From positions 235,001 through 299,000 of IMG/VR virus record IMGVR_UViG_3300021387_000463: 64,000 bases of DNA. One strand, written 5' to 3'. This stretch comes from a virus. Lineage: Duplodnaviria > Heunggongvirae > Uroviricota > Caudoviricetes. The translations under genes were made by a program, and so were the position numbers. Shown here piece after piece: positions 3,843 through 64,000 of this stretch; within the stretch, counting starts at the first letter, position 1, and each line of letters opens with the position of its first letter. The notes beneath the pieces are model-generated. The model was given only the letters and a program-made list of their open reading frames with translations, did no database searches and was not told the DNA's origin.

Positions 3843-4062
3843 ACTCCTTAGACTTAAAAAAGTACATCTATGCTCCTATCTGAATAAGGTAGGGGCATTT
3901 ATATTTTAATCTATAATAATACAAAAAATGGGTCATGTCTCACGGCATAACCCATCATCATTCACCTAAATTCACAATTATGACAAACAAATAGGTGCTT
4001 GGACTTATCACCAACATTACGTTTGCGCTACATTAAATGTGCCTTACACCCATTTCTCTTTG

Positions 4063-4158
4063 ACAAGGCGGTCGGATTCGAACCAACGTTATACAATCCA
4101 TGAAATTGTAGTCACATCTTTCTTGTGATGCCGCATGAACCAACTCTGCTACACCTTG
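4063..4158 (-). tRNA. degenerate type-II (long variable arm) tRNA-like gene, anticodon undetermined
   Basis: Acceptor CAAGGTG/CGCCTTG, D-arm GCAGAGTTGGTTCATGC, T-arm GTTGG-TTCGAAT-CCGAC, long variable hairpin TACAAT..ATTGTA. The anticodon stem GCATC/GATGT closes an 8-nt loop ACAAGAAA that lacks U33. No encoded CCA. Confidence 0.7.
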
Positions 4159-13538: not shown

Positions 13539-15488
13539 ATGAACAAGAAAGTACTAGATTTTGTAAATAAATTGGAGGGTTATAAGACAGCGATTAAGCA
13601 ATTGCATTGGGATGCTGATAACATGTCCCAACATGAATTGTGTGATGATATTGCTGAAAGCATTGCTGAATTTCAAGATACAGTATCTGAGGTTGAGCAG
13701 TCTATAACAGGCAAACTAAAGGTTAACTCTCTTAAGCCTACTGAATATAAGATTAAGGACTTAAAATCATTTGTTGAGGATGTATTAGATGCCACTAATA
13801 GTTTTTACAAGGAGGTAAAAGATATGGGTGACACTTATGTTGGTATGGCAAGTGACTGTGAGAGCTTTTTATCTGATATGCAGAGGAAGTTATACCTTGT
13901 TAACTTTACGCTTAAGGAAGAGCTTAAAGAGAGGCTTAGAGGCAAGATTAACGAGTCAATGCCAAAGAACTTGGCAAATCATGATGAGGTTGACAAGTTC
14001 ATGGGAAGAAGACCAAAGACGATGAAGGCTAGAATCAACCAGATTTACAGAATTGTAAAGAGGTATGGCATTGATTCAAAGCTTTATCATGATGACCATT
14101 GGCAAGCAAAGGATGATTACTACAGAGCAATCACCTCATTGGGTTGTGACTTTGAAATGAGACCTTGTGGCAATTCAAACAACTTGGACAATTGGGATGA
14201 CATTACCTCAGATGGTGGATATTGCGATTATGCTGAAGATGGTATGCCACGTTCAAAGCAATATGCTGTAAAGATTATGTACGATGATGGAATGAACATT
14301 GGCGGTTACATTAAGTTCATGGCAGCTGGTCGTGTTGATGACCCATTCAGTGCATATGATACTTGTATGATTCTCTGGCCAAAAAATAATCGTGTATTAG
14401 AGAATAGAGAAATGAGAAACGAATCAATTACTGAATATGGTGACAAACCAGAGACTAGAGAAAAAATGGGTGCAGTTGCCAAGCGTGGAATAATGAAGGG
14501 TGACGTTAAGCCTTATCAGAGAGCCATGAGTAGCTTAGGAAAGAGAGGAAGTCGTAAAGAAGATTATGCAGATTTCCAAAGGGGCTTTGAAAATGAGAAT
14601 AGACAGATAAAGTTATCTGAGGCAGAACTTAAACAAGTGGTTAAGGAAGCTGCGATGAAGATATTAAGTGAAACTCCATTAAACTATGATATTGATAATT
14701 TCAGTGGAAGATGGACTAAGAGTGAACCTAGTGATGAAGAATGGGCATTAGCTGACTCAAGGGCAAATGGTGATTATTTGGATGACCCATTCCATGCACC
14801 TAACAGCTGGGATGATGATGAATGGGTAGATGGTGATAAGGATATGGAGAATGATTATTCATGGGGTTTATACCATAGAATGAATAATGTTGGCAAATCT
14901 CCGATTGACAGACAGCATGACATAATGGATGCTGCCCAGAATAGAAGAGACCATGCAGCTTATTGGACTGATAAGGATAATGAACGTGGTAGAAAATTGA
15001 TGGATAAATGGATTAATGGTAAGAGAGATACAGATGAATTGGGTGATGTAGATTTCTCTTACGACCCATATAAGTACAATGAGTCAAAAAGACCAATAAA
15101 GGTTACTGAGAACGAGTTAAAAACTATCATTAAGGAAGCCGCAGTTAAACTTATCAAGGAATATGGCGAAAATGTAAAGAATTTTGTAAAACGTAGTGGT
15201 TGTGCTGCAAGGCGTAAAACTGGTGACCCACGCAAGGATAAGGAGAATAGGGAGAAGTGGCTTGAGAGACAAAGGAAAAGGGAACTGAAGGGTGTTTCAA
15301 AGGAAACTGATGAATCGATTGATATAAAGCCATCTAAGGAAGGAACATTCACAGCAGCCGCAACGAAGCATGGCAAGAGTGTTCAAGGTTTTGCTTCTCA
15401 AGTATTAAATAATAAGGATGATTATTCACCAGCTATGGTTAAGAAGGCCAATTTTGCTAGGAATTCAAAGAAATGGAATAAGAAATAA
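13539..15488 (+). CDS. multidomain protein: N-terminal ferritin/Dps-like domain, internal leader repeats and C-terminal KKANFARN domain
   Basis: KQLHW...HELCDDIAE...QDTVSE ferritin-like helix pattern; internal IKLSEAELKQVVKEAAMKILSE and IKVTENELKTIIKEAAVKLIKE. Confidence 0.7.
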   Translation: MNKKVLDFVNKLEGYKTAIKQLHWDADNMSQHELCDDIAESIAEFQDTVSEVEQSITGKLKVNSLKPTEYKIKDLKSFVEDVLDATNSFYKEVKDMGDTYVGMASDCESFLSDMQRKLYLVNFTLKEELKERLRGKINESMPKNLANHDEVDKFMGRRPKTMKARINQIYRIVKRYGIDSKLYHDDHWQAKDDYYRAITSLGCDFEMRPCGNSNNLDNWDDITSDGGYCDYAEDGMPRSKQYAVKIMYDDGMNIGGYIKFMAAGRVDDPFSAYDTCMILWPKNNRVLENREMRNESITEYGDKPETREKMGAVAKRGIMKGDVKPYQRAMSSLGKRGSRKEDYADFQRGFENENRQIKLSEAELKQVVKEAAMKILSETPLNYDIDNFSGRWTKSEPSDEEWALADSRANGDYLDDPFHAPNSWDDDEWVDGDKDMENDYSWGLYHRMNNVGKSPIDRQHDIMDAAQNRRDHAAYWTDKDNERGRKLMDKWINGKRDTDELGDVDFSYDPYKYNESKRPIKVTENELKTIIKEAAVKLIKEYGENVKNFVKRSGCAARRKTGDPRKDKENREKWLERQRKRELKGVSKETDESIDIKPSKEGTFTAAATKHGKSVQGFASQVLNNKDDYSPAMVKKANFARNSKKWNKK

Positions 15489-15537: not shown

Positions 15538-16389
15538 TTAGAAATCTGTTGTTCCGATTTTAGGTCTTTTATAGAATCCTCTTGGGTCTACTGTATAGTC
15601 TTTATATCCATCACTATCCGTATATGTACCATCGGTGAATTCTATATATAATTTATTATCTCCAATCCATCCAGTTTTAGCATCGCTAAGTCCAAATTTC
15701 ATGAACTCATCATAGATTTTTTCTGACTCTGGTGTCATGTGTCCGTTTTCATCGGTATCAAATAAAGCATAGTAATCTCCGAAGTCAGTAACTTTTCCTC
15801 CAGTTTGTTTTGTTAGGTCTTCTAGATAGTTTCTTACATAATTCCAATAGCTTCTATCAGAACCTTTTCCAAGGCCAGTTGTTTTCTTTCCTCTAGCCCT
15901 TTTATGTGTTTGCATTCTTTGTTTTTCTGGAGATACTGTTTGTGTTATATCGTAATATTTACGAGCACCATCACCAATATCTTTATAATCAGTTTCCTTA
16001 TAAGTATAACCAGGATAGTCTTGGTTTCTTGAAGCTGCTATGTCTTGACTTTGCTTAAGTACGGATTCAAGTTTCTCCTTTACCTTTGGGTCTTTCTGAT
16101 ACTCTGGTTTAATTATGATATATTTACTTCCATCGTTAAACTCACATACATCATCAACAAATTGGTCTAGTTTCCAAGGAATACTTTCGCCTTTTTTTAA
16201 AAAAATTAAGTCATAACTTAAGTCATTTTTGTCCAATTGATACTTTTTGTTGACACTACGCACCCCTCCATGTTGTCTTGCAACTTTTTTGAGTCTTGGT
16301 GAAGCAAAACCTTCGCTAAGTATTCTTTGTACGGATTCTTTAACAATGTTATGTAAATCTGATTCTGTTAATCTAATTATATTTTTCAT
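15538..16389 (-). CDS. hypothetical protein with MKNIIRLTESDLHNIVKESVQRILSE leader
   Basis: Leader motif; late motif at 16408-16416 on the minus strand. Confidence 0.8.
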   Translation of the reverse strand: MKNIIRLTESDLHNIVKESVQRILSEGFASPRLKKVARQHGGVRSVNKKYQLDKNDLSYDLIFLKKGESIPWKLDQFVDDVCEFNDGSKYIIIKPEYQKDPKVKEKLESVLKQSQDIAASRNQDYPGYTYKETDYKDIGDGARKYYDITQTVSPEKQRMQTHKRARGKKTTGLGKGSDRSYWNYVRNYLEDLTKQTGGKVTDFGDYYALFDTDENGHMTPESEKIYDEFMKFGLSDAKTGWIGDNKLYIEFTDGTYTDSDGYKDYTVDPRGFYKRPKIGTTDF

Positions 16390-16461
16390 ATATATATACA
16401 TTTTCTATATAAATATTAGTATATACAAAAAAAATGCAGTCATCGTAGGCTGCATTTTGTA

Positions 16462-23415: not shown

Positions 23416-23688
23416 ATGAAGAAGATACATATTAACGAGAATCAAGAAGCTATTGTAAATGAAGATGCTAAAATAGTAAATCTTTATGATACTAACTTAG
23501 GTGATTTTTATGATGAAGAAGAGGAGGAGTATATAACAAAAGTATCAGAAAAGTTAGATGAATTAATAAGAGGACTTTTTGATTTGAAGGAATATATTGA
23601 TAATACACCAGAATATGTTTCATCAGAAAGAGGTGAACGAGAAATACAGAGAATAAAAGATACAATAGAGACTTTAACAAATGGATAA
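23416..23688 (+). CDS. small acidic protein (MKKIHINENQEAIVNE leader)
   Basis: 90-aa ORF. Confidence 0.7.
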   Translation: MKKIHINENQEAIVNEDAKIVNLYDTNLGDFYDEEEEEYITKVSEKLDELIRGLFDLKEYIDNTPEYVSSERGEREIQRIKDTIETLTNG

Positions 23689-25387
23689 TAGACAAAATAT
23701 TAATGAATCATTCACTGATACCTTATTCCATTTTACTACATTTAGTGGAGCTTTTTATATAGTTAAATATGACAGATTCTTTTTAACTAACATTATAGAT
23801 GCTGCTAGAGAAAAGCAATTTAACAAAGACAGATTATATTATATGTCTTTTGCTAGGCATTTTAATTCTACTATGGGTTATGTTGGTACTAGAAACGATG
23901 GTACTAAATTTGGCTCTACATACCTTAATGTTAGAATAGAAGTTGATGGTAGAATATTGTCATATAACCATAAAGCTGTTAATGTTAATAATGTTGGTAA
24001 AGCGGCAGATGTGATAACAAATAGGCAGCAAGAAGAAAGGTTAATAAGTGATGAACCAGAAGTTGGAGATGCGCATAAATTCATAAGAGGTATATACATC
24101 TACAACCCAAAGGTTGGTAATGCCAATAAACTCACAAAAACAATAGTGAATTTACATAGACAAATACTTTACATGATGTTAAAACCTGGTTATGAAAGAA
24201 AAGTGTATGTTTTCACTGATGAAGAATCTTTCAACAACATTCCAAAAGCTATTAGTAATGGTTCATATGTTGACCCTAATGTAATAAAGGAAATAGCACA
24301 ATCTCCAGTTGAAGAAGTGGATGGAAGCCAAATTGAACTTGATAGTAATCAAATAATAACTTCTGCAAGAATATATGCTCTTCTTCAACTTTTAGAAAGA
24401 AGTTCTGTAGATGATTTATTTGTTAGCAATGATGAAAGATGGAACAAAGTATTACCACGCATCAAAGAAGAAGGTTTAAAAATAATAAATAGTTCATATT
24501 CAGACCCTATGAGAGCAAATACTTATCTTTTTGGCTCTCTTCTAGGCAATAATTTGAAAAACAATTTTGGTGGGGATTATAAACAGTTTTATCGTTTTAT
24601 AATTGCGCCTATCTACAAATATATGAATTCTAGGGGAATTGAAGAGTTTAATATATTACAAAAATGGAAACATAAATTATTTGCTGATGCAATTGGCGTA
24701 AGGTATAAGCCAGAGGTTAATATGAATGAAATACCTTATGGATTAGATAACACCAATCATATAGCTAGGAAAATGGCTGTTGGCGAGAATTCTACTTATA
24801 AGATACTATTAAAATCAATTATCCAAGAAGCGATTGATAATGTTCTAGGCGATAAAAAAAAAATTAAACTATCAATCTTCGATTTCGATGGAACTTTAGT
24901 TGATACCACAGCAATTGACAATTATAGAGAAAAAGCTAAAAGTATTAAGGATAAGAATGTTAGACTAGAGTTTTATAGACAATTTTTTAGTCAAACACGT
25001 CCATATTCTGGAATTGTTAATGTCCTAAATCAACTAAATAACATGGGTGTTTTTATTGCTGTAGTTTCATTAAGTCCTATGAACATGGTAAAAGAATTGT
25101 GCCAATATCATAATTTGCCAATTCAAGCAGCTATATCAGTTCCAGGACGTAGCACACCTCTAAATGTGATTAAAGGAAACCAAACTGGTTATCCGAAATC
25201 AGCAATTTATAAGCAGCTCATGACTAAATTAGGTATTGAACCAGATTGTGTATTAGCAATTGGTGATGAAGTCACAGATGCTCAAGAAGCTCGAAAGGCA
25301 AATATTAACTTCTTGGGATGTAATTGGGGTGGTAGAAATGAAGTCAATGACATTTCAAATCCAAATGAAATTTTAAATTATGTGTAA
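23681..25387 (+). CDS. fusion of an ART-like N-terminal domain and a HAD-family phosphatase
   Basis: C-terminal FDFDGTLVDT...VVS...PK...IGDEVTDAQEA (HAD motifs I-IV); N-terminal LFHFT...SFAR...QQEER resembles an ART core. Confidence 0.75.
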   Translation: MDNRQNINESFTDTLFHFTTFSGAFYIVKYDRFFLTNIIDAAREKQFNKDRLYYMSFARHFNSTMGYVGTRNDGTKFGSTYLNVRIEVDGRILSYNHKAVNVNNVGKAADVITNRQQEERLISDEPEVGDAHKFIRGIYIYNPKVGNANKLTKTIVNLHRQILYMMLKPGYERKVYVFTDEESFNNIPKAISNGSYVDPNVIKEIAQSPVEEVDGSQIELDSNQIITSARIYALLQLLERSSVDDLFVSNDERWNKVLPRIKEEGLKIINSSYSDPMRANTYLFGSLLGNNLKNNFGGDYKQFYRFIIAPIYKYMNSRGIEEFNILQKWKHKLFADAIGVRYKPEVNMNEIPYGLDNTNHIARKMAVGENSTYKILLKSIIQEAIDNVLGDKKKIKLSIFDFDGTLVDTTAIDNYREKAKSIKDKNVRLEFYRQFFSQTRPYSGIVNVLNQLNNMGVFIAVVSLSPMNMVKELCQYHNLPIQAAISVPGRSTPLNVIKGNQTGYPKSAIYKQLMTKLGIEPDCVLAIGDEVTDAQEARKANINFLGCNWGGRNEVNDISNPNEILNYV

Positions 25388-48716: not shown

Positions 48717-50093
48717 ATGGGAAAGACTATTACATTCGGAGAGAATAGACTATTAACTTTAAAGGATAGAATAAATGAAATTATGGTTGGCACAACTAGT
48801 GTCAGCCATAATCTTGTTTCCCATAACATTAATGAAGCATCAGCAGAGGTTGATGAATTTGAACTTGGACAAGAAACGAATAATCCTCCAGTTGGAGGAA
48901 ACTATTGCCATGTTGAAGAGAATGTTGACCTTGAGGTAAATTCATCTGATATTGACCTTTCTTCATTTAAGAAGAGAAGCGAATTAGCTCCAATATGGTT
49001 GGATGGTGATACATTGGATTCTAGGGTTAGATTAAGACTATTGGATATTGCAGATGATTTTTGGGAGTTTGTTAATCTAACTTGGGTTGAACCAAGTGGA
49101 ATTATTTTAACAGGTTCAATCTGTAATTTCAATTGGTCTAAGTATTCTGACATTGACCTTCATTTGATTGTAGATTTCGATGAGATTGATGAGAAGACAG
49201 AGTTTGTGCGTGATTATCTCGATGCCAAGAAGAACGAATGGAATAATGAGCATAGTGAATTGACGATATTGGGATTCCCAGTTGAATTGTATGTTCAGAA
49301 TCTAGGAGAAATGCCTCAGAGTGGCGGTATATACGACCTTGAGGAAAATGATTGGGTTAAGAAACCAGATATGGGCAGCATAAAGCCAATTGGTCTTGAT
49401 AAGTTCTCAATCAAGGATAAGGCAGCAGAAATCATGACAATCATTGATGACATGTATAATGCTCTTAATGCTACAGATGATTCACATAAGATTGAGACAA
49501 TCGGTGATGATGCTCAGTACCTTTGGAAAAAGGTTAAGGCAATGCGCAAGGCAAGTCTTGAAAGCAATGGCGAGAGTGGAGCTGGAAATATCGTGTATAA
49601 GATTCTACGTAGAACACAATATCTTGATAAGTTGTTCAAGTTGTTCTCAACTGTTTATGATAGAAACAATTCAATATTTGAAGGAATTGGGAAATACAAG
49701 AATGCCATTACATTATTAAAAGAGGAATGGGTTGGTGATGGAAACAGTGAGCATAATCCTTATAAGAAACGCTGGGATGCTGAAAGAAAGGCATTGAAAG
49801 ACTTTGTTTCTAATTATGGTAAACTAATGCAGTCAAAGGAGAATGGTAAACTTTACAAGTGCTATTATGATAAGGTATTATCCCAATTAATTGGATATAA
49901 TTATTGTATATGCATACAATGGGATAATATTGAGATGAAACCTAAAAGTGTACTATATATAAGAGCATTGGATAAGTTCACACCGAATATTAAACAAGTC
50001 AATTTTGATACAAGGGGAAGAGATAATTTGGCCAACACAAGAGATGATTTTATTGTTACAGCACCACAACAATCTCAGTATCAATACCAATAA
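48717..50093 (+). CDS. Pol-beta-like nucleotidyltransferase with cleavable-looking N- and C-terminal segments
   Basis: IILTGSICNFNWSKYSDIDLHL...VELYVQ; DRINE, HNINE and LLKE sites. Confidence 0.8.
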   Translation: MGKTITFGENRLLTLKDRINEIMVGTTSVSHNLVSHNINEASAEVDEFELGQETNNPPVGGNYCHVEENVDLEVNSSDIDLSSFKKRSELAPIWLDGDTLDSRVRLRLLDIADDFWEFVNLTWVEPSGIILTGSICNFNWSKYSDIDLHLIVDFDEIDEKTEFVRDYLDAKKNEWNNEHSELTILGFPVELYVQNLGEMPQSGGIYDLEENDWVKKPDMGSIKPIGLDKFSIKDKAAEIMTIIDDMYNALNATDDSHKIETIGDDAQYLWKKVKAMRKASLESNGESGAGNIVYKILRRTQYLDKLFKLFSTVYDRNNSIFEGIGKYKNAITLLKEEWVGDGNSEHNPYKKRWDAERKALKDFVSNYGKLMQSKENGKLYKCYYDKVLSQLIGYNYCICIQWDNIEMKPKSVLYIRALDKFTPNIKQVNFDTRGRDNLANTRDDFIVTAPQQSQYQYQ

Positions 50094-50162: not shown

Positions 50163-51803
50163 ATGGATAACAAAATGAATACAAATGAGCAGATTGCTAG
50201 AATGAAGGCTTTGATGGGATACGGTCTTCAAACTGAGAGTAAGAAAGCTCCATACAGCTCAGTAGAGAACCAGAAGACTGGTGCTGACGGTAATGTATAT
50301 GGTATTGTACGTGAGGGTACAAAGTACTACATCAAGTCTGCTCCTAACAAAAAGAATCTTGTAAAGGAAGATTTCAACTACATTGGTGGTTTCAGAAATA
50401 GAAAGGATTATCAGTATGATTCTTTCGCTGATGCACAGAAGAATTTTGACCTCAAGATGATGTCTCTTAGAGAGGCAGCTAACAGACAAGACTACAACAT
50501 TAGTTCTTGGGACTTGGAAAAAAAAGAAAATGTTGTAATCGAGGCAACTGATAAGATGAGAAGTGAAATTAATCGTTCACGTCAAATCATGGAGAATGCA
50601 ATGAAGATTGCAGAGGGCAAGAAGAAGGAATGCGCAAATGGTGTTTGTGACAATATCTCTAGCGAGGTTGAGGAGTGCGGTGACGCAACTGCTGCAAACG
50701 CTGGTTATACCGATGCATCACTTCCAAAGGAGTCTGGCATGATTGAGTCAGTTGTTAAGGAAGAGGAAGTTCTTGGTTGGAATCGTGGTAACGATGACTA
50801 TATGGATAAGTCTCATGGCACTGAGATTGGTGATAGCGCACCTTTTGACGGTCCAGAGGCTCGTAACATTGACGATGGTGACAAGAAGGTAACTAACACT
50901 GGTGAAATGAAGAATGGTACTGTTGAAGAGGGTGCTTCAATGCACGATTCAGACAATCAGAATACTCCAACTCCAGGTGTTGGTGAAGGTCCATCTGATG
51001 ATAACAACAAACCTTTCGATGGTGAAAAGGGTAAGAAGATTGACGAGGCTTTTGATGATTTCGGTGGTGAGGATGTTGACGGTGCTCCAGCTCCTGAAGA
51101 TGGTGAGGGAGAACTTGGTGATGACCTTGGTGCTGAAGGTGAAGGTGAGCCAATTGGTGACGAACTTAGCGATGAAGGTGAACCAATGGGTGATGACCTC
51201 GGTGGTGAAGGCGAAGAAGACTTTGCAAGCGATGGAGAAGGTGAAGACGTATACGAGGATGATGTTGAGTCACGTCTTAGCGCAATGGAAGAGCTTCTTT
51301 CACAAATTGCTGACAAGTTGGGTATTAGCGAGCCAAGCGTAGACGCTAGTGAGTATTCAGACGATGATATCTTCGGTGATGAAGGTGAAGATGATGATTT
51401 CGGTGATGAAGAGCCAATCGATGACGAAATGCCAATGGAAAGCAGACGTAGAAATGGTGTTCAGATTTACGAGACCAAGGCATTCAAGGCTGCAATGCGC
51501 AAGCAGAGAATGAACGAGGATGGTATGAAGCCATTTAAGGATGCAGGACGTGTTCCAAGTGGTAACATGAACAAGTTGGATGACTTCGGTAAGCACCCAG
51601 CATATCAGAAGAAGGTTATGGAACTTCCTCCAAAGGATATGAAGGAATTCCCAGATTACTATGATATGAATGACGATTCAGTTAAGAACGATACACCTTA
51701 CGGTGAGAAGATTGGTGACGGTGCTCCATTCGACATCGACCCACAAGCAATTGACAATGCAATTTCAGAGGCTTTCAATCGTTTAAAAAAAAACAGAAAG
51801 TAA
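50163..51803 (+). CDS. acidic prohead core/scaffold-like protein
   Basis: NEQIARMKALM N-terminus, long D/E/G-rich region, many x-x-E sites; lies upstream of terminase/portal. Confidence 0.6.
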   Translation: MDNKMNTNEQIARMKALMGYGLQTESKKAPYSSVENQKTGADGNVYGIVREGTKYYIKSAPNKKNLVKEDFNYIGGFRNRKDYQYDSFADAQKNFDLKMMSLREAANRQDYNISSWDLEKKENVVIEATDKMRSEINRSRQIMENAMKIAEGKKKECANGVCDNISSEVEECGDATAANAGYTDASLPKESGMIESVVKEEEVLGWNRGNDDYMDKSHGTEIGDSAPFDGPEARNIDDGDKKVTNTGEMKNGTVEEGASMHDSDNQNTPTPGVGEGPSDDNNKPFDGEKGKKIDEAFDDFGGEDVDGAPAPEDGEGELGDDLGAEGEGEPIGDELSDEGEPMGDDLGGEGEEDFASDGEGEDVYEDDVESRLSAMEELLSQIADKLGISEPSVDASEYSDDDIFGDEGEDDDFGDEEPIDDEMPMESRRRNGVQIYETKAFKAAMRKQRMNEDGMKPFKDAGRVPSGNMNKLDDFGKHPAYQKKVMELPPKDMKEFPDYYDMNDDSVKNDTPYGEKIGDGAPFDIDPQAIDNAISEAFNRLKKNRK

Positions 51804-52315
51804 ACGAAATAGCTTTTGAGGAGAGACCAACAAAATTGGAAATACCAAACAGCAACCCTCTAGGTGGTAGTGTTGATGGCATGGGTGATTTAGATAATGC
51901 TCAAATACCACCAATGGGTGCTGACAATATGGGGATGGAAAACCTAGCAGATGGTGCTCAAGGCGATATGCCTCTAGGCGAAGCTCCAATGGATACACAA
52001 CAAGCTCCAATTGGTGATGGTATGGAAGGTGAAGATTCAGAGAATGCTGAAATTAATAATGTGATTAATGGCATGAATTTGAACAATAAATTAAAGGTTC
52101 TTAACTATGCTAAGAGCATTGAAGATGATTCAAACGATATGCCTCAAGATGGTGGAATACCAATGGAATCAACCTTCAACTACAAGGGTATAATTGATGA
52201 GGTTATAAATGATGTTTTGGATGATTATGAAGGTACAAAGAGGCCTGAAGATACAATGCCAAAAGAGTATAGAAGTCAACCAATAACACCATTCCAATCT
52301 CCAAATTTTAAATAA
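51782..52315 (+). CDS. -1 frame extension of the scaffold-like protein (ORF with no ATG at its 5' end)
   Basis: -1 frame is open from the slippery T_TTA_AAA (51782) as FKKKQKVNEIAFEERPTKLEIP...; shares acidic G/D/M composition and a PMES motif. Confidence 0.65.
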   Translation, partial: FKKKQKVNEIAFEERPTKLEIPNSNPLGGSVDGMGDLDNAQIPPMGADNMGMENLADGAQGDMPLGEAPMDTQQAPIGDGMEGEDSENAEINNVINGMNLNNKLKVLNYAKSIEDDSNDMPQDGGIPMESTFNYKGIIDEVINDVLDDYEGTKRPEDTMPKEYRSQPITPFQSPNFK

Positions 52316-52319
52316 GACA

Positions 52320-52349
52320 AAAAGGGATACTTTTGAGTGTCCCTTTTTT
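52320..52349 (+). terminator. intrinsic terminator
   Basis: aaaagggatac-tttt-gagtgtccctttttt. Confidence 0.7.
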
Positions 52350-54573: not shown

Positions 54574-55329
54574 ATGGATAAGAAAATCATAAGACTAACT
54601 GAATCAGACCTTCATAATATTGTGAAGGAATCAGTGAATAAAATTTTGAAAGAATATACAGGAGATTTTGGCTACAGTGATGACCCAAACTATAACAAAT
54701 TTGCACAGCAAAATAGACCTCAGCAAAAACAGACTCCACCACTTGCTAACTATCAGCCAAAGAGACTTGGTGGTAATTTGGTGTCTAATGATGGTGGGGA
54801 ATCATATATGTGGGATGATTCTCAACAAAGGCAATTTGGAAACAATGGAACTGTAGAAGAATCTGCTGTAAACGAGGTAAAGTATGATGGCGTTTCATAT
54901 CACGGAACAAACCCTTATGATTGGGTAGATGTTGCTAAAGAGAGACAATATAAGGCAAGAGGGGAAGAAGATAAAGTTTCCCAATATAATAGAGAACGTT
55001 TTAAAGCAAAAGACAATGGTGACTTTATGGGTGCAGAAAATGCATCCAATAATGCAGATACACATAGGCAACAGTGGAGGCTTCAAAATAAAAAAATGAA
55101 TAGAAACTATGATAATGCGAAACAACTTGGATGGAAAGGTGTTGATTGGGAAGGAAATGGAGATACAAGATTAGGTAAAGCACAAGAATATTACAATATG
55201 GGTCAGAACGCTCAAACGCCACAAGACAGACAACGTTATAATAAAATGGCTCAAGATACATTGGGTGACGTAGAAGGTAGAGCACAAAAGAGTCTAAATA
55301 TGCTAAGAGCCGCAAGAGGGCAAGCATAA
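54574..55329 (+). CDS. hypothetical protein with MDKKIIRLTESDLHNIVKESVNKILKE leader
   Basis: Leader nearly identical to the 15538-16389 ORF; Q/N-rich body. Confidence 0.8.
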   Translation: MDKKIIRLTESDLHNIVKESVNKILKEYTGDFGYSDDPNYNKFAQQNRPQQKQTPPLANYQPKRLGGNLVSNDGGESYMWDDSQQRQFGNNGTVEESAVNEVKYDGVSYHGTNPYDWVDVAKERQYKARGEEDKVSQYNRERFKAKDNGDFMGAENASNNADTHRQQWRLQNKKMNRNYDNAKQLGWKGVDWEGNGDTRLGKAQEYYNMGQNAQTPQDRQRYNKMAQDTLGDVEGRAQKSLNMLRAARGQA

Positions 55330-55517: not shown

Positions 55518-57395
55518 ATGATTTACGATAGGCAAGAAATGAGTCGAGACTATGCCATGTGCTATGCCGACAAATCAAGAATTACATTTATAGAAAAGTA
55601 TTTCTCTACCTTTAATGCAACTAAGGGTAAGAAAACACAATTCCACTGTTTTCCACGTCAGAGAGCATTCCTCAAGGCTCTTGCGGAGAATAGAAACGTT
55701 GTTGCGATTAAACCAAGACAGTGTGGTATCACAACATTATCAAGTGCTTGGGCTGCTGCCCAGTGTGCATTTGCATCAGCAGAGGCACCTGAGACTGTGT
55801 TGTGTATTGCCAATAAGCTTGAGCAAGCGCAAGAAATTATCATCAAGGTAAGAGATTTCCTTGAGCAAGTTCCTAGATGGTATTGGGGTAACGATTATTT
55901 CTCAGTTGACCCTAATTCAGAAAAAAACACAAAATCAATTTTTTTAAAGGATGCAAAAGGTGAGTTGAAATTGTTCAATGGCTGTAGAATCATTGCACGT
56001 GCATCTGGTCCTAATGCTTCTCGTGGTATCTCTGCTGTATCCGTATTGATTCTTGACGAGGCAGCATTCATTGAGGAAGGTGTGGCTGCATTTACCACTG
56101 CTGCTGCAACTATGGCATCTAACCCTAATTCTAAGACTGTTATGGTATCTACCCCTAACGGTAGAGACGAGCTTTACTATAACACATATAGACAAGCATT
56201 AAGCCATGAGAATAACTTCGTGGCAGTACAGTTCCGTTGGTATCAAGACCCAAGATTCAACAAGTATCTTGTTTGGAAGAAGAAGAACGAGAATACTGGA
56301 GAATGGGAGTTTGACCAAGACCCAATAATCGATAGCGAGGGAAGTGTGAAGTATGATGAGGAAAGATGGGCTAGACTTGAACATAACGGTTGGAAGCCTA
56401 CAGCACCTTGGTATGATGAAATGTGCAAGCAGTTCAACAATGACTCAATGAAGATTGCCCAAGAGCTTGATGTATCGTTCATGGGTTCTGCCGACAACGT
56501 TGTTGCCCCAGAGTTCATTGAAATGCAAGAGAAACTTAACACAAGAGAGCCACTTGATGATTTCCATGACCCATTAGTTGAGGAGACTTGGTTCTGGAAG
56601 CGTCCTCTTGAGGGACACCGTTACATTCTTGCGTGTGACCCATCAAGAGGTGTGTCTGCCGATAGAACAGCCATTGAGATTATTGATATGGATGGAAGGG
56701 ACGAGAATGGTATACCTATCATTGAACAAGTTGCGGAATATGTCGGTAAAAAATTAGGTGATGACATCGGAGCATTGTGTTATCAATATGCCACAATGTA
56801 TAATGATGCTTTCATTGTTGTGGACTGTACTGGTGGTCAAGGTGATGCTGCTATATTGGCACTTATTAATATGGGTTATAAGAACATGTACTATGAGGAC
56901 TCTAACCAGAAGACATATACGGTTCAGAGGTCAACGAAGAACTATGATGGATACACGGATAAACTTCCAGGTTTCCACTTCCAAGGAAACCGTTATCCAG
57001 TACTTGCAAACTTCGCAGGACTTGTTCGTAACAATGAGTTCAAGATTCGTTCAGCTAGGGTAATCAATGAGCTTGAGACTTGGATATTCAAGGGTGAGGC
57101 AGCTAGAATTGACCACCAAGACGGTGCTCATGACGATACTCTTACAGCATTGGCTATGGGATTATTCGTTATGCAGTACACTGTCAATAGGATACAGAAT
57201 ACTGCCAATAAGGATAAGGCCATCCTTAATGCGTATATGATGAATCGTGCAATTAGTATGAATAAGCCTAAGATGAAGAGTGGAGAAACCATTGCTCCTA
57301 AGACTGGTTTACCTTTCTATAGTTCAAAGAAACGTATTGAGAAATATGATAAAATTGGTGGAAGTTGTATGTGGCTATTTGGGGGTATTCGTTAA
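55518..57395 (+). CDS. terL: terminase large subunit (T4 gp17-like)
   Basis: PRQ...IKPRQCGITT (Walker A), LILDEAAF (Walker B), VSTPNG, ACDPSRG and HDD nuclease motifs. Confidence 0.95.
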   Translation: MIYDRQEMSRDYAMCYADKSRITFIEKYFSTFNATKGKKTQFHCFPRQRAFLKALAENRNVVAIKPRQCGITTLSSAWAAAQCAFASAEAPETVLCIANKLEQAQEIIIKVRDFLEQVPRWYWGNDYFSVDPNSEKNTKSIFLKDAKGELKLFNGCRIIARASGPNASRGISAVSVLILDEAAFIEEGVAAFTTAAATMASNPNSKTVMVSTPNGRDELYYNTYRQALSHENNFVAVQFRWYQDPRFNKYLVWKKKNENTGEWEFDQDPIIDSEGSVKYDEERWARLEHNGWKPTAPWYDEMCKQFNNDSMKIAQELDVSFMGSADNVVAPEFIEMQEKLNTREPLDDFHDPLVEETWFWKRPLEGHRYILACDPSRGVSADRTAIEIIDMDGRDENGIPIIEQVAEYVGKKLGDDIGALCYQYATMYNDAFIVVDCTGGQGDAAILALINMGYKNMYYEDSNQKTYTVQRSTKNYDGYTDKLPGFHFQGNRYPVLANFAGLVRNNEFKIRSARVINELETWIFKGEAARIDHQDGAHDDTLTALAMGLFVMQYTVNRIQNTANKDKAILNAYMMNRAISMNKPKMKSGETIAPKTGLPFYSSKKRIEKYDKIGGSCMWLFGGIR

Positions 57396-57453: not shown

Positions 57454-59493
57454 ATGGCTAAAAATACAGTTTTCCAAGCCCTAGATAAAGCTATAAGCGG
57501 TAATTGGTCTTCTCCATCAACATCAATAGCAGAACCACATATAAATTCATATGATTTGAGTTCTAATGGTGGTAAAAATATACTCTACAAAACAACGGAT
57601 AGAGAGGATTACTTACAGAAGAAACTAGAGCTTCAGCAAGATAAGTACTTGAAGGACAGATGGGTTAAAACAAATGTTAACCTAGCTGTAACTGCATATG
57701 CTGGACTTAACAACGTCAAGTTGATGTATCGTGATGGCGATTTGATGGATGCATTTCCAGAGATTAGTGCAGCACTTGATATTGTTTCTGAGGAAAGTAC
57801 AATTGTTAATGACAAGGGAATGGTTGTTAATGTTTATTCAAAGTCAGATAGAATCAAGAGCATTCTTGAGGATTTGTTCGTGAATAGGCTTAACATCCAG
57901 TTAACTGGTCAAATGATTATTCGTGCAATGTGTAAGTATGGTAATCAGTTCATGTTATTGGATATTGACCATAAGAATGGTGTGAAGGGTTGGAAACAAC
58001 TTCCAGTGTTTAACATGGAAAGAATTGAGAACGGAATTCAGAATCCTTATGGTGCTGGTGCATCAATCGCTGTTAACGGTATCACAAAGGATGACGCAGA
58101 CCTTTCAACTCAGTTCATTTGGTTGGATGACAATAACTCTCAAGTACCATTTAGAGATTGGCAGATTGCACACTTCAGATTGCTCACCAACTCATTATAT
58201 TTGCCTTACGGTGTAAGTTATCTTAATGGCGCACGTAGACATTGGAGAATGCTTTCACTTATGGAGGACATGATGCTTATTTATCGTCTTGAGCGTTCTG
58301 TTGAAAGACGTGTATATAAGATTTTCGTAGGAGCAATTGACGATGCTGATGTTGAGGCATATGTTGAGAGAATTGCTAATGAGTTCAAAAGAACACCAAT
58401 TATTGACCCAGTAACAGGTCAAGTTGACCTTCGTAAGAATATTCTTGGAATTGATAATGATATATTCATTCCAGTTCGTGATGAGAATGCTCCAACTCCA
58501 ATTGATACTCTTCAAGCAGGTCAGAACATGACAGCTCTTGATGACATCAAGTTCGTACAGAATAAGGTGTTGACCTCACTTAGAATACCTAAGTCATTCT
58601 TGAATTTCGAGGAAGGTGTTGGTGACGGTAAGAATCTTGCACTTATGGATATTCGTTTCACTAGAACAGTAAACAGAATACAGCAAGCATTCTTGATGGA
58701 ACTTACAAAAGTGGCTTCAATCCACTTGTTCTTGTTGGGATTCAATGATGAATTAACTAATTTCTCATTGACAATGAATAATCCATCAACACAAGCTGAA
58801 GGATTGGAGATTGAGAATATGCAAAAGAAGATTGATGCTGTTAGAGACGCAGTATCAGACCCAGGAAATGGTCTTCCAGTTATGTCACAGACTCGTGCTC
58901 TTAAGCAGATTATGAAATGGTCTGAGAAGGAGATTAAAGAGAACCTTGAAGAGATACGTCTTGAGAAGGGTATTGCTGCTGAACTTGAGAAAACCACACA
59001 GATTATCAAGAAGACTGGTATTTTCGATACCGTTGATAGAATCTATGGTGAACCAGGAGCAGAATACATGGATGATATGCAAGGCGGTCAAGGCGGCATG
59101 GACGCTGGAGGAGGCGGTATGGGCGGTGGAATGGGAGCACCACCACCTCCAATGGGAGACGCACCTGATATGGGTGGAGATATGGGCACACAAGGTGATG
59201 ATGGTAGTGGAATGACACCAGCCCAAGAGGGTTCAATGCCAACTGCCGATATGGGAACTGACCCAAATGCACCAATGGAGTCTAGATATTCAAGCAAGCC
59301 ACTAATAAAGGAGCAGAACAACAAGCTTGATGAAATGTTTAATAAGTATCTCTCAACCTTGAATGGGCGTAATGAGAAACATAGGGAAACTGAATACAAG
59401 CGTGCAAATGTCTATGACGAGGACTCATTATTGATTAATGAGGAATTTGATAAGATGATTGACGAACTTGGTAAGTTTGTTGACAATGAATAA
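57454..59493 (+). CDS. portal protein (T4 gp20-like) with G/M/P/D-rich C-terminal tail
   Basis: PEISAALDIVSEE...AHFRL...YGVSYL..ARRHWRMLSLMEDMMLIYRLERSVERRVYKI...LRIPKSFL...DIRFTRTV. Confidence 0.95.
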   Translation: MAKNTVFQALDKAISGNWSSPSTSIAEPHINSYDLSSNGGKNILYKTTDREDYLQKKLELQQDKYLKDRWVKTNVNLAVTAYAGLNNVKLMYRDGDLMDAFPEISAALDIVSEESTIVNDKGMVVNVYSKSDRIKSILEDLFVNRLNIQLTGQMIIRAMCKYGNQFMLLDIDHKNGVKGWKQLPVFNMERIENGIQNPYGAGASIAVNGITKDDADLSTQFIWLDDNNSQVPFRDWQIAHFRLLTNSLYLPYGVSYLNGARRHWRMLSLMEDMMLIYRLERSVERRVYKIFVGAIDDADVEAYVERIANEFKRTPIIDPVTGQVDLRKNILGIDNDIFIPVRDENAPTPIDTLQAGQNMTALDDIKFVQNKVLTSLRIPKSFLNFEEGVGDGKNLALMDIRFTRTVNRIQQAFLMELTKVASIHLFLLGFNDELTNFSLTMNNPSTQAEGLEIENMQKKIDAVRDAVSDPGNGLPVMSQTRALKQIMKWSEKEIKENLEEIRLEKGIAAELEKTTQIIKKTGIFDTVDRIYGEPGAEYMDDMQGGQGGMDAGGGGMGGGMGAPPPPMGDAPDMGGDMGTQGDDGSGMTPAQEGSMPTADMGTDPNAPMESRYSSKPLIKEQNNKLDEMFNKYLSTLNGRNEKHRETEYKRANVYDEDSLLINEEFDKMIDELGKFVDNE

Positions 59494-62084: not shown

Positions 62085-62188
62085 GTAAAGATGGGTAATC
62101 TACGCACGATTGCCCATTTTTTTTTGTGTTTGGGGCTTGATTTTTACTAAAATTTTTGTTATTTTTTAAAAGTAAAAGATATAACAAA

Positions 62189-62623
62189 ATGAAACGACTT
62201 AATAAAGAATATAAATTAGACGTGTGTAATCATATTTCGTTAAAGTATGGTACGGTAAATAGAAACAACCCTCAAGTTGTTTATATCAGTGGGAAATGTT
62301 GGGTATCTCCACAAAGAGAAATGAATTATTCTGATGTTATTGATAACATTGAAAAAGGTATGAAGAGGAATATAAAATCATTTTTGATTGATGGTATAAA
62401 CTTCGATAATCGCTTTATATTAGACTTTGACATCAACACTGAAGGGCTTATACCGAAGGAGAAGAAATTCCTCTCATTCGACTTCTATTTGCGTCAGAAC
62501 GAGAAGAACAAAAAGCAGTTACAAGATTTGAATGATTTGTTTAAGAGAAAGATTAGTACTATTGCCAACAACCTAGTATATTCTTTTAAGGAAAATGATT
62601 TCACGATAAACAAAAAAAAATAA
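62189..62623 (+). CDS. hypothetical phage protein
   Basis: MKRLNKE start; YGTVNRNNP...FILDFDI motifs. Confidence 0.7.
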   Translation: MKRLNKEYKLDVCNHISLKYGTVNRNNPQVVYISGKCWVSPQREMNYSDVIDNIEKGMKRNIKSFLIDGINFDNRFILDFDINTEGLIPKEKKFLSFDFYLRQNEKNKKQLQDLNDLFKRKISTIANNLVYSFKENDFTINKKK

Positions 62624-62658: not shown

Positions 62659-62991
62659 ATGAAGAAGGTAATAAGACTAACAGAATCAGAATTGAAAAAT
62701 ATCATAAAGAATTCCGTTAATAGAATATTAAGGGAAGATGTATTGGGAAATGATTGGCGTGAGAACGACAATGTATTGAATAACTATGAACCATTTGAGG
62801 GTGAGGAACATTCTACCCCATTTGACGGTATGACAAATGACCATGACTTTGGAATAACTGGAGAACCTCTTGACCAAACTCATGATGACATTAATCAAGA
62901 TGATATTGTAAATGGTGGAGACCCAGAGGAATGGGCACAAGATAGAATTGACCTTGAGGCCAATTACGATGATTTTCCACCAATGAGATAA
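62659..62991 (+). CDS. acidic protein with MKKVIRLTESELKNIIKNSVNRILRE leader
   Basis: Leader motif; late motif at 62634. Confidence 0.8.
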   Translation: MKKVIRLTESELKNIIKNSVNRILREDVLGNDWRENDNVLNNYEPFEGEEHSTPFDGMTNDHDFGITGEPLDQTHDDINQDDIVNGGDPEEWAQDRIDLEANYDDFPPMR

Positions 62992-63054: not shown

Positions 63055-63453
63055 TTAAATATTCTTTATTTTTACTGTGAAACTTTTAATGTATGAATTC
63101 CTTACACATACAAATTCTATGTTGTCTTTTATTGGAGCATATGCCTTGATTCTCTCCATGAATGTTTGTCTGTCCTTAGATGTGTAGTCACTCATTGGAT
63201 AGCATATATATTCTGTATAACGTCCCATATCCTTTGAATTCATATGCCTCCATCCACATTCTCTTTCAGCTCTCAAGAGGGCTTCAATTGCTCTACCGTT
63301 TGCAGATGAACGATATTCGTCAACTTGGCCTTGGTCGAAGAATAGGTCAGTTTGTCCATTTGGATAAACACCAATCTCATTTATAATTCTAGTGACCGAT
63401 TCGTTTATCAGACCATGCAAGTCACCTTCAGTTAATCTTATCACTTTTTTCAT
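63055..63453 (-). CDS. protein with MKKVIRLTEGDLHGLINESVTRIINE leader
   Basis: Leader motif; directly downstream of the prohead protease gene. Confidence 0.8.
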   Translation of the reverse strand: MKKVIRLTEGDLHGLINESVTRIINEIGVYPNGQTDLFFDQGQVDEYRSSANGRAIEALLRAERECGWRHMNSKDMGRYTEYICYPMSDYTSKDRQTFMERIKAYAPIKDNIEFVCVRNSYIKSFTVKIKNI

Positions 63454-63457
63454 AACA

Positions 63458-64000
63458 TTATGATTTTAGAATACTCTTAATTTTACTAATCTTTTCGTTA
63501 AGGCTTGGCTTCTCATTCTTTGTTGTATCTGTTTCAACATACTGCTGCAAGTCTTCTGCTGCGCCAACAAATGCACCTGGAGTTGAAGGGTCGCTAACTA
63601 CGTCCCAGCAGATAAGCTCGAAGTCATCACCTACGATATATTGTCCAAGCTTCTGTTCAACTGAGCCGACACCTCTTGAAGATACACCAATCTTAATTCC
63701 GTTCATAAGTAGGTTAGCCATGTCATCACCACGTGTACTTACAATACCATATTTTCTAAAACCGTATGAGGTATTAATCTCAAGCTTTCCTACAAGTGTT
63801 CTTCCTTCCCAATGAAGTTCAACGATATTGATTGCAATTCTACCCAAATCAATTGTTGACTCTGCTGGGTGATTCAACTCACCAATTGCTCTTCTATCAT
63901 TAATCTTCTCTTGGTATAGTTCAACTTGCTTCTTCAATACAGCCTCTGGATATATTCTACCATTTGCGTTCTTAACGCCAAACTTTTGAAATACAGCATC
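63458..64000 (-). CDS. prohead core protease (T4 gp21-like), 5' end outside the window
   Basis: DAVFQKFGVKNANGRIYP...AIGELNHP...IGVSSRGVGS...WDVVSDPSTPGA; C-terminal SLNE site. Confidence 0.95.
   Translation of the reverse strand, partial: DAVFQKFGVKNANGRIYPEAVLKKQVELYQEKINDRRAIGELNHPAESTIDLGRIAINIVELHWEGRTLVGKLEINTSYGFRKYGIVSTRGDDMANLLMNGIKIGVSSRGVGSVEQKLGQYIVGDDFELICWDVVSDPSTPGAFVGAAEDLQQYVETDTTKNEKPSLNEKISKIKSILKS

Follow-up and report, generated by a model that had tools for sequence, protein, structure and literature searches.

Probable programmed recoding at a conserved poly-A run in a head-region gene of huge tailed phages

The dnaX gene of Thermus thermophilus yields tau and gamma through transcriptional slippage on a run of nine A residues (A9; PMC1088944, PMC5009743). 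A comparable arrangement is described here in a stretch of 64,000 nucleotides (the window in what follows), which corresponds to bases 235001-299000 of the 412,753-bp tailed-virus record IMGVR_UViG_3300021387_000463. The record was rated complete by CheckV, has a G+C content of 36 %, and gave no match when compared by blastn with deposited phage genomes. Two overlapping open reading frames (ORFs) of this window, ORF1 and ORF2, meet at an A9 run in different frames. Comparison with relatives argues strongly that they are joined by programmed recoding of some kind, and part of the product very probably continues in the other frame to a form of 717 residues.

Resemblance to Thermus dnaX is close: an A9 run is located on the sense strand late in the gene, one gene would give two products with a common N-terminus, no RNA structure seems to be required, and nearby stops in the non-productive frames would keep other slippage products short. 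In Thermus, however, the unslipped mRNA encodes the long product and slippage truncates it, whereas slippage in the phage would add 174 residues, and the phage gene belongs to a head region and is known here from sequence alone. Citrobacter rodentium tssM (PMC4256274) and Shigella spa13 (PMC5009743) are similar in that an interrupted gene is restored in some transcripts when the polymerase slips along an extended stretch of A or T, giving a short and a long form. These are bacterial secretion-system genes, and the interruption of tssM is strain-specific, whereas the phage split appears ancient and clade-wide, with a direction that varies by lineage.

Ribosomal systems provide a second set of parallels. 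Heptamers of the X_XXY_YYZ type, in phase with the upstream frame, are found in E. coli dnaX and insertion sequence (IS) elements (A_AAA_AAG) and in phage lambda G/GT (G_GGA_AAG), and relatives of the present locus also displayed such heptamers, including A_AAA_AAG and G_GGA_AAA. A conserved two-ORF layout in a phage structural region, presumably setting a fixed ratio, is likewise shared with the lambda type. In contrast to all of these, the phage site is devoid of a conserved stem-loop or Shine-Dalgarno-like element and about 40 % of the relatives need a +1 shift; unlike lambda G/GT, the gene is not located beside tail tube or tape-measure genes and its protein is unrelated to tail chaperones. 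In gene 10A/10B of phages T7 and T3 (-1) and in the capsid gene of Listeria phage PSA (+1), a minority of a structural-module protein gains a frameshift-encoded C-terminal extension (PMC5009743), as is proposed here; in those cases a major capsid protein of defined fold is extended at a defined shift site, whereas the present protein is acidic and disordered and its site is a homopolymer. By analogy, the anatomy of the locus matches that of programmed homopolymer slippage (Thermus dnaX, tssM, spa13, IS elements) and also the phage habit of frameshift C-terminal extensions (T7/T3 gene 10, PSA capsid, lambda G/GT) (PMC5009743, PMC4256274). No description of the ORF1/ORF2 gene family or of its recoding was found in the literature searched.

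The main features of the locus are gathered in Table 1. ORF1 ends with CGT TTA AAA AAA AAC AGA AAG TAA, preceded by AAT, so that its stop (51801-51803) is encountered seven bases past a T3A9 run. Frame -1 is open from 51755 to a TAA at 52313-52315; counted from 51782 it comprises 177 codons (FKKKQKVNEIAFEERPTKLEIPNS), the approximate length given in the initial annotation of this DNA. That annotation had proposed -1 programmed frameshifting on T_TTA_AAA (51782-51788) and A_AAA_AAC (51788-51794). Both heptamers are present, in phase with frame 0 and within the overlap, together with a third one that had been overlooked and is better than either, A_AAA_AAA at 51785-51791. One added A in the run makes the frame continuous, and the predicted long form then measures 717 residues (78.9 kDa, pI 4.2), close to the 720 or so previously estimated. 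Two further statements of the annotation were confirmed: the sole start codon ahead of the ATG at 51881 is a TTG at 51836, and the terminator-like hairpin is located past the second ORF, none being detected between ORF1 and ORF2 or anywhere before 52319. ORF1 and ORF2 form one transcription unit.

Table 1. Location of the features discussed in the text (window coordinates unless indicated otherwise).
Feature	Position	Strand	Remarks
ORF1, short form	50163..51803	+	546 aa, 60.3 kDa, pI 4.3, 24% Asp+Glu
Overlap, frames 0 and -1 both open	51755..51803	+	any shift has to fall here
A9 run, putative slip site	51785..51793	+	T3 (51782-51784) before, C after
ORF2 part, -1 frame	51791..52315	+	174 residues added after Lys543
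[LIV]-x-E motif, V-N-E	51800..51808	+	candidate prohead-protease site
Conserved linker FEERPTKLEIPNS, ORF2 frame	51815..51853	+	upstream of first ATG (51881)
Terminator-like hairpin and T run	52319-52348	+	closes the ORF1-ORF2 transcription unit
NTase-like ORF	48717-50093		weak match
TerL	55518-57395		
T4-type portal (Portal_T4, PF07230)	57454-59493		E = 1.4e-87
T4 gp21-type prohead protease (Peptidase_S77, PF03420)	63560-64000 and onward, at window end		E = 7.5e-25
MKKIIRLTESDLHNIVKESVxRILKE copies	54574-55329 (+), 62659-62991 (+), 63055-63465 (-), 15538-16401 (-), two internal in 13539-15488 (+)		six more proteins elsewhere in genome
Notable tRNA, tRNA-like and tmRNA loci	window 4062-4158 (-); genome 22662-22757, 134142-134227, 129249-129604		ARAGORN

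Relatives were gathered in two scans of IMG/VR, which gave 61 distinct loci of 38-85 % identity, many of them on contigs of 200-412 kb. Metagenome contigs were scanned with the run length left free between fixed flanks, and 16 contigs with near-identical flanks were obtained. A run of A7 to A11 occupied the homologous position in the window, in 61/61 viral loci and in 16/16 metagenome contigs. ORF1 homologs stopped 2-12 nt past the run in all 61 loci, the only exception being a single A11 metagenome variant, and an ORF2 homolog of ~160-215 codons followed in a shifted frame in every locus. Among the window and the 61 loci, 27 sequences displayed A9 with a -1 shift needed, 26 displayed A10 with +1, five A10 with -1, and four (L041, L043, L117 and L127) A7 with -1; A9 or A10 were thus found in 58 of these 62 sequences, and A8 in none. 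While the run itself was kept throughout, the -1 relation assumed in the initial annotation was not, ORF2 being in +1 in 26 of the 62. Run phases 0 and 2 were both represented and phase 1 was absent.

Run length was constant within clades over 60-85 % protein identity. In the 47 aligned loci, A9 or longer was present at the site in 45, the remaining two displaying A7, and only four such runs were encountered elsewhere on the same strand in 394 kb, at positions that were not fixed. Fifteen of the 16 metagenome contigs had A9, one had A11 and none an in-frame A10. The A11 variant (L065:1997-2031 on the minus strand, contig NFZD01012523.1) was otherwise near-identical to A9 sequences; it moves ORF2 from -1 to +1, passing over the in-frame A10. 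An in-frame version of the A10 type, which would turn the pair into a simple fusion, was found in none of the assemblies examined. Because run and split were kept in all loci and such runs are rare off-site, chance and sequencing error are excluded as far as assemblies can show.

The region available for a shift was narrow. The overlap was reduced in many relatives to the run plus 2-12 nt. Among the window and 46 loci, the ORF2 frame opened only at the third base (position +2) of the run in 17 of the +1 sequences and in L040 (-1), as a TAA stop reaches into the beginning of the run; several further loci of the second scan also opened this frame only inside the run. In most +1 relatives and L040 the resulting shift window was 10-20 nt, mostly the run itself. 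No fused protein was recovered. Homologs of the ORF1 C-terminus formed 593 protein clusters, of which the best 120 measured 328-593 aa, and no longer protein carrying ORF2 was found. An exhaustive HMMER search of 1.84 billion representatives with ORF2 gave 37 matches, all of 41-192 aa except one low-complexity protein of 2401 aa, and no in-frame fusion.

The peptide encoded directly after the run was also conserved. A [LIV]-x-E motif followed the Lys run in 39/39 distinct ORF2 sequences (V-N-E in the window), and in all frame classes the peptide after the run could be written KK..[LIV]-x-E..(F)EERPTKL[EK][IV]PNS. For the linker FEERPTKLEIPNS, the ratio of nonsynonymous to synonymous polymorphism (pN/pS) was 0.30 in the ORF2 frame versus 0.77 and 1.70 in the other frames (18 distinct sequences, 13 codons). 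This linker was located upstream of the first post-run ATG in all but two of the 18, in which the ATG abuts it directly. By these values, the peptide preceding that methionine in the ORF2 frame (for example QKVNEIAFEERPTK) is under purifying selection. Slip site, split and coding status of the linker are all conserved across the sequences compared.

The mechanism proposed is as follows. ORF1 and ORF2 would constitute a single gene whose reading frame is switched, in a programmed way, within the A9 run. The major product would be the short form of 546 residues, terminated at 51803, and a minority would be continued in frame -1 to give the 717-residue form (...NRLKKKQKVNEIAFEERPTKLEIPNS...). RNA polymerase would stutter on the run, turning A9 into A10 in some mRNA, from which ordinary translation would read ORF2. 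Where a relative has A10 or A11 and needs +1, the transcript would have to lose one A or gain two, and for the small A7 clade (G_GGA_AAA_AAA) slippage probably takes place on the ribosome instead. Two versions of an acidic, disordered head-region protein would thereby be kept at a set ratio, one of them bare and the other with a 174-residue extension, joined through the conserved [LIV]-x-E, which the T4-type prohead protease may cut.

Whether transcription is the main level of slippage is judged evenly balanced. Slippage by RNA polymerase is considered at least as likely as ribosomal slippage because about 40 % of the relatives need +1, the runs cluster at 9-10 and no stimulatory element is conserved. 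A coding-strand run of about nine or more A or T at the frame junction, and a conserved alternative-frame ORF that would give a plausible fused protein, are expected of such a site, and both were observed here. The absence of A8 favours the polymerase: run lengths were 9-11 in 58/62 sequences, and A8 was never seen even though A8G would be almost synonymous in either frame. In many bacteria, selection against slippage-prone runs sets in at a length of nine, which is also that of the Thermus dnaX site (PMC1088944). The polymerase is also favoured by a quick ORF1 tree, which implied at least 3-4 reversals of the direction needed, from -1 to +1 or back (8 parsimony changes), and by the near-identical A11 variant.

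Two usual features of a classical cassette for -1 programmed ribosomal frameshifting were not observed, namely a stimulatory element and a conserved -1 relation. No stable structure was detected in the window downstream (z = +1.44) or upstream (z = +1.07) of the site, neither value being significant against shuffles, nor was a conserved structure detected in 38 homologs, where mean z values were -0.81 and -0.41, with individual values below -2 in only 4 and 2 cases. A small GUCUUU/AAAGAC hairpin was restricted to a subset of relatives. No Shine-Dalgarno-like element was conserved, the upstream GAGG alternating with GAAG, a synonymous change.

Several points weigh against stuttering of the polymerase. 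Occurrence, level and efficiency of slippage are all inferred from sequences. The A7 runs of L041, L043, L117 and L127 are too short for efficient polymerase slippage; all four display an in-phase A_AAA_AAA, and L043, L117 and L127 also G_GGA_AAA, a pattern that points to the ribosome in the A7 lineages and, on grounds of parsimony, perhaps in every -1 member. The classic A_AAA_AAG heptamer is present in several A9 relatives. Further A9/A10 runs are located inside ORFs of the same genome, which is awkward if the polymerase slips efficiently on each of them and is taken as a mild argument against very efficient slippage. Finally, searches with PF00562 and PF00940, the latter without positive control, detected no phage RNA polymerase, and the slipping enzyme would therefore be that of the host.

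The leading alternative is ribosomal -1 programmed frameshifting, in which two tRNA-Lys on AAA AAA (51786-51791) slip one base back. A_AAA_AAA would be used, or else A_AAA_AAC or T_TTA_AAA, and the nearby 0-frame stop may help; in the +1 relatives a shift of -2 or +1, or else sliding along the poly-A tract, would be required of the ribosome. This explanation is considered less likely than not. Heptamers are in phase in the window and A_AAA_AAA is present in every -1 relative. The A7 relatives reduce the site to exactly the minimal in-phase heptamer, three of the four reading G_GGA_AAA_AAA, and the E. coli dnaX heptamer A_AAA_AAG was encountered in L024, L025, L027, L039 and L044. The 0-frame stop always falls 2-12 nt past the run, apart from the A11 variant, and sliding on iterated AAA codons is known for ribosomes (PMC4363877). 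It is opposed by the lack of any conserved downstream hairpin, pseudoknot or Shine-Dalgarno-like element and by the 26/62 sequences that need +1 or -2, which are rare for ribosomes. Re-pairing would be imperfect in the phase-2 A10-TCT class, runs are kept at 9-10 where seven would do, with A8 never seen, and the direction needed has changed repeatedly on the ORF1 tree. Polymerase stuttering stands slightly ahead of ribosomal -1 slippage; transcription is tentatively preferred for the A9/A10 classes, the window included, and the ribosome for the A7 clade. As to the -1 frameshift first claimed for this locus, comparison lends strong support to a programmed frame switch that yields two forms of the protein, short and long, while its ribosomal nature is not established.

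It is very unlikely that ORF2 is a separate small gene starting internally at TTG 51836 or ATG 51881, the run being then just the lysine-rich end of ORF1 or else a leader rich in A. Gene callers do report ORF2 homologs as proteins of their own (41-192 aa), and in most relatives an ATG occurs 50-90 nt past the run. A-rich leaders are also favoured in hosts that dispense with Shine-Dalgarno sequences. The run is nevertheless too distant from the ATG for a leader role, and the residues encoded ahead of this ATG in the ORF2 frame are conserved and under purifying selection. TTG 51836, which falls inside the linker, is replaced by TTA, CTT, CTA or CTG in most relatives, and no independent conserved start codon for ORF2 was found among homologs, in which the slip site is kept. 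In every sequence the ORF2 frame extends without a stop back to the run, with [LIV]-x-E after the run in 39/39 distinct ORF2 sequences, and a separate gene would leave a run length of 9-10 over 38-85 % divergence unexplained. Least probable of all is a homopolymer miscall splitting a 717-aa gene, or a phase-variable contingency locus with split and fused genomes arising by replication slippage: long A runs are indeed error-prone and hypermutable and one near-identical contig has A11 in place of A9, but all 78 of 78 sequences, from many samples and assemblers, are split and none is fused, run length is constant within clades at 60-85 % protein identity, and the sole variant differs by two bases, skipping the in-frame state.

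The slip site can be regarded as a well-supported new case of a known recoding trick. In hundreds of huge phage genomes from rumen and gut the gene has been split by gene callers, and the 717-aa product is therefore absent from protein databases. The family also constitutes a natural experiment, in which run and split survive deep divergence and the shift direction changes while the in-frame version is never seen; retention of the split indicates, as judged from these comparisons, selection for a ratio of two forms. It further offers comparative leverage on the question of polymerase versus ribosome slippage.

The function of the two products was approached through context. PHROGs, Pfam, NCBIfam and PDB profile searches gave no match for ORF1/ORF2, and ESM Atlas gave no named cluster; no match to the tail assembly chaperone G/GT family was obtained either. 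According to the alignment, ORF1 proteins consist of a conserved N-terminal region with an invariant Glu25, a long, variable, acidic, low-complexity middle and a conserved C-terminal region, and display three G-D-x-A-P-F-[DE]-like motifs. An AlphaFold2 prediction for ORF1 (25-sequence alignment) reached a predicted local distance difference test (pLDDT) score of 51 and a predicted template modelling (pTM) score of 0.21; apart from some helices and a small beta-meander, the chain is predicted to be disordered. The previous label of a scaffold-like or T4 prohead core protein was not borne out by any family or PDB profile match or by this mostly disordered model, and such an identity is a contextual guess. 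A prohead-associated role of the ORF1 product is plausible because of the head-module setting and the T4-type protease.

Short Pro-Phe motifs recur along the predicted protein: IGDSAPFD, NNKPFDGEKGK and IGDGAPFDID in ORF1 (window 50800-51760), and P-F-x-S-P-[FY] at the C-terminus of ORF2 (52270-52312). They are kept across the protein family and resemble short linear binding motifs in a disordered chain.

In T4 the prohead-protease motif reads L/I-x-E. The conserved [LIV]-x-E that follows the run is a candidate prohead-protease site, and its position would be consistent with detachment of the extension from the rest of the protein after assembly. The invariant Glu25 near the ORF1 N-terminus is the other sequence feature that may bear on cleavage after Glu. 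Proteases of the T4 gp21 family cleave behind a Glu that lies in a short motif, and N-terminal targeting leaders of 10-20 residues are found on T4 internal proteins (PMC5694885, PMC9026906). Retroviral Gag-Pol (PMC5009743) is comparable in that frameshifting attaches a second polypeptide to a protein of the assembly region, here through a protease-site-like sequence ([LIV]-x-E), with a gp21-type protease encoded nearby; this is an analogy alone, packaging and cleavage of the phage protein being hypothetical. In its most speculative form, which is considered improbable, the locus would be a frame-agnostic polymerase-stutter switch, kept by the phage clade, whose direction has flipped several times and whose purpose resembles that of Gag-Pol: a fixed minority of molecules would bring a further 174 residues, as cargo or anchor, into the prohead, to be freed there at [LIV]-x-E by the T4-type protease.

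A motif of ~25 residues, MKKIIRLTESDLHNIVKESVxRILKE, was encountered in 12 copies in 11 proteins of the phage. It opens at least nine small proteins, is located ~60 residues from the start in one, and occurs twice inside a 649-aa ORF. Its first nine residues end in L-T-E, and by analogy they may resemble a T4 capsid-targeting leader cut by the prohead protease. The C-terminus of ORF2 (IIDEVINDVLDDYEG) was tried as a member of the recurrent MKKIIRLTESDLHNIVKESV family and rejected, as it was not recovered once ORF2 was left out of the seed (E >= 0.29).

As indicated in Table 1, ORF1 is located in a head-morphogenesis region with TerL, a T4-type portal and a T4-type prohead protease. A ThyA-like gene and three ORFs without assigned family were also found among the neighbours of ORF1/ORF2. 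The placement typical of tail chaperones, between major tail and tape-measure genes, was not observed, the neighbours being ThyA-like, NTase-like, TerL and portal genes.

Two other long A runs of the window were considered. An A10 run at 24854-24863 is located in the middle of a 568-aa ORF (23681-25387; peptide ...IIQEAIDNVLGDKKKIKL) and is not followed by a long alternative frame; slippage there would truncate the 568-aa protein. Relatives of this region were sought as a control and none was retrieved. An A9 run at 62612-62620 directly precedes the stop of ORF 62156-62623; it was rejected as a recoding site, its alternative frames comprising at most ~36 codons, and looks like a plain Lys-Lys-Lys tail.

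Approximately 50 tRNA genes and one tmRNA were found by ARAGORN in the phage genome. This set includes a tRNA with a CTA anticodon, which would read UAG, and two tRNA-like genes with the four-base anticodon aaga. Such UAG-reading and four-base-anticodon tRNAs deserve mention in a phage that has several candidate recoding sites.

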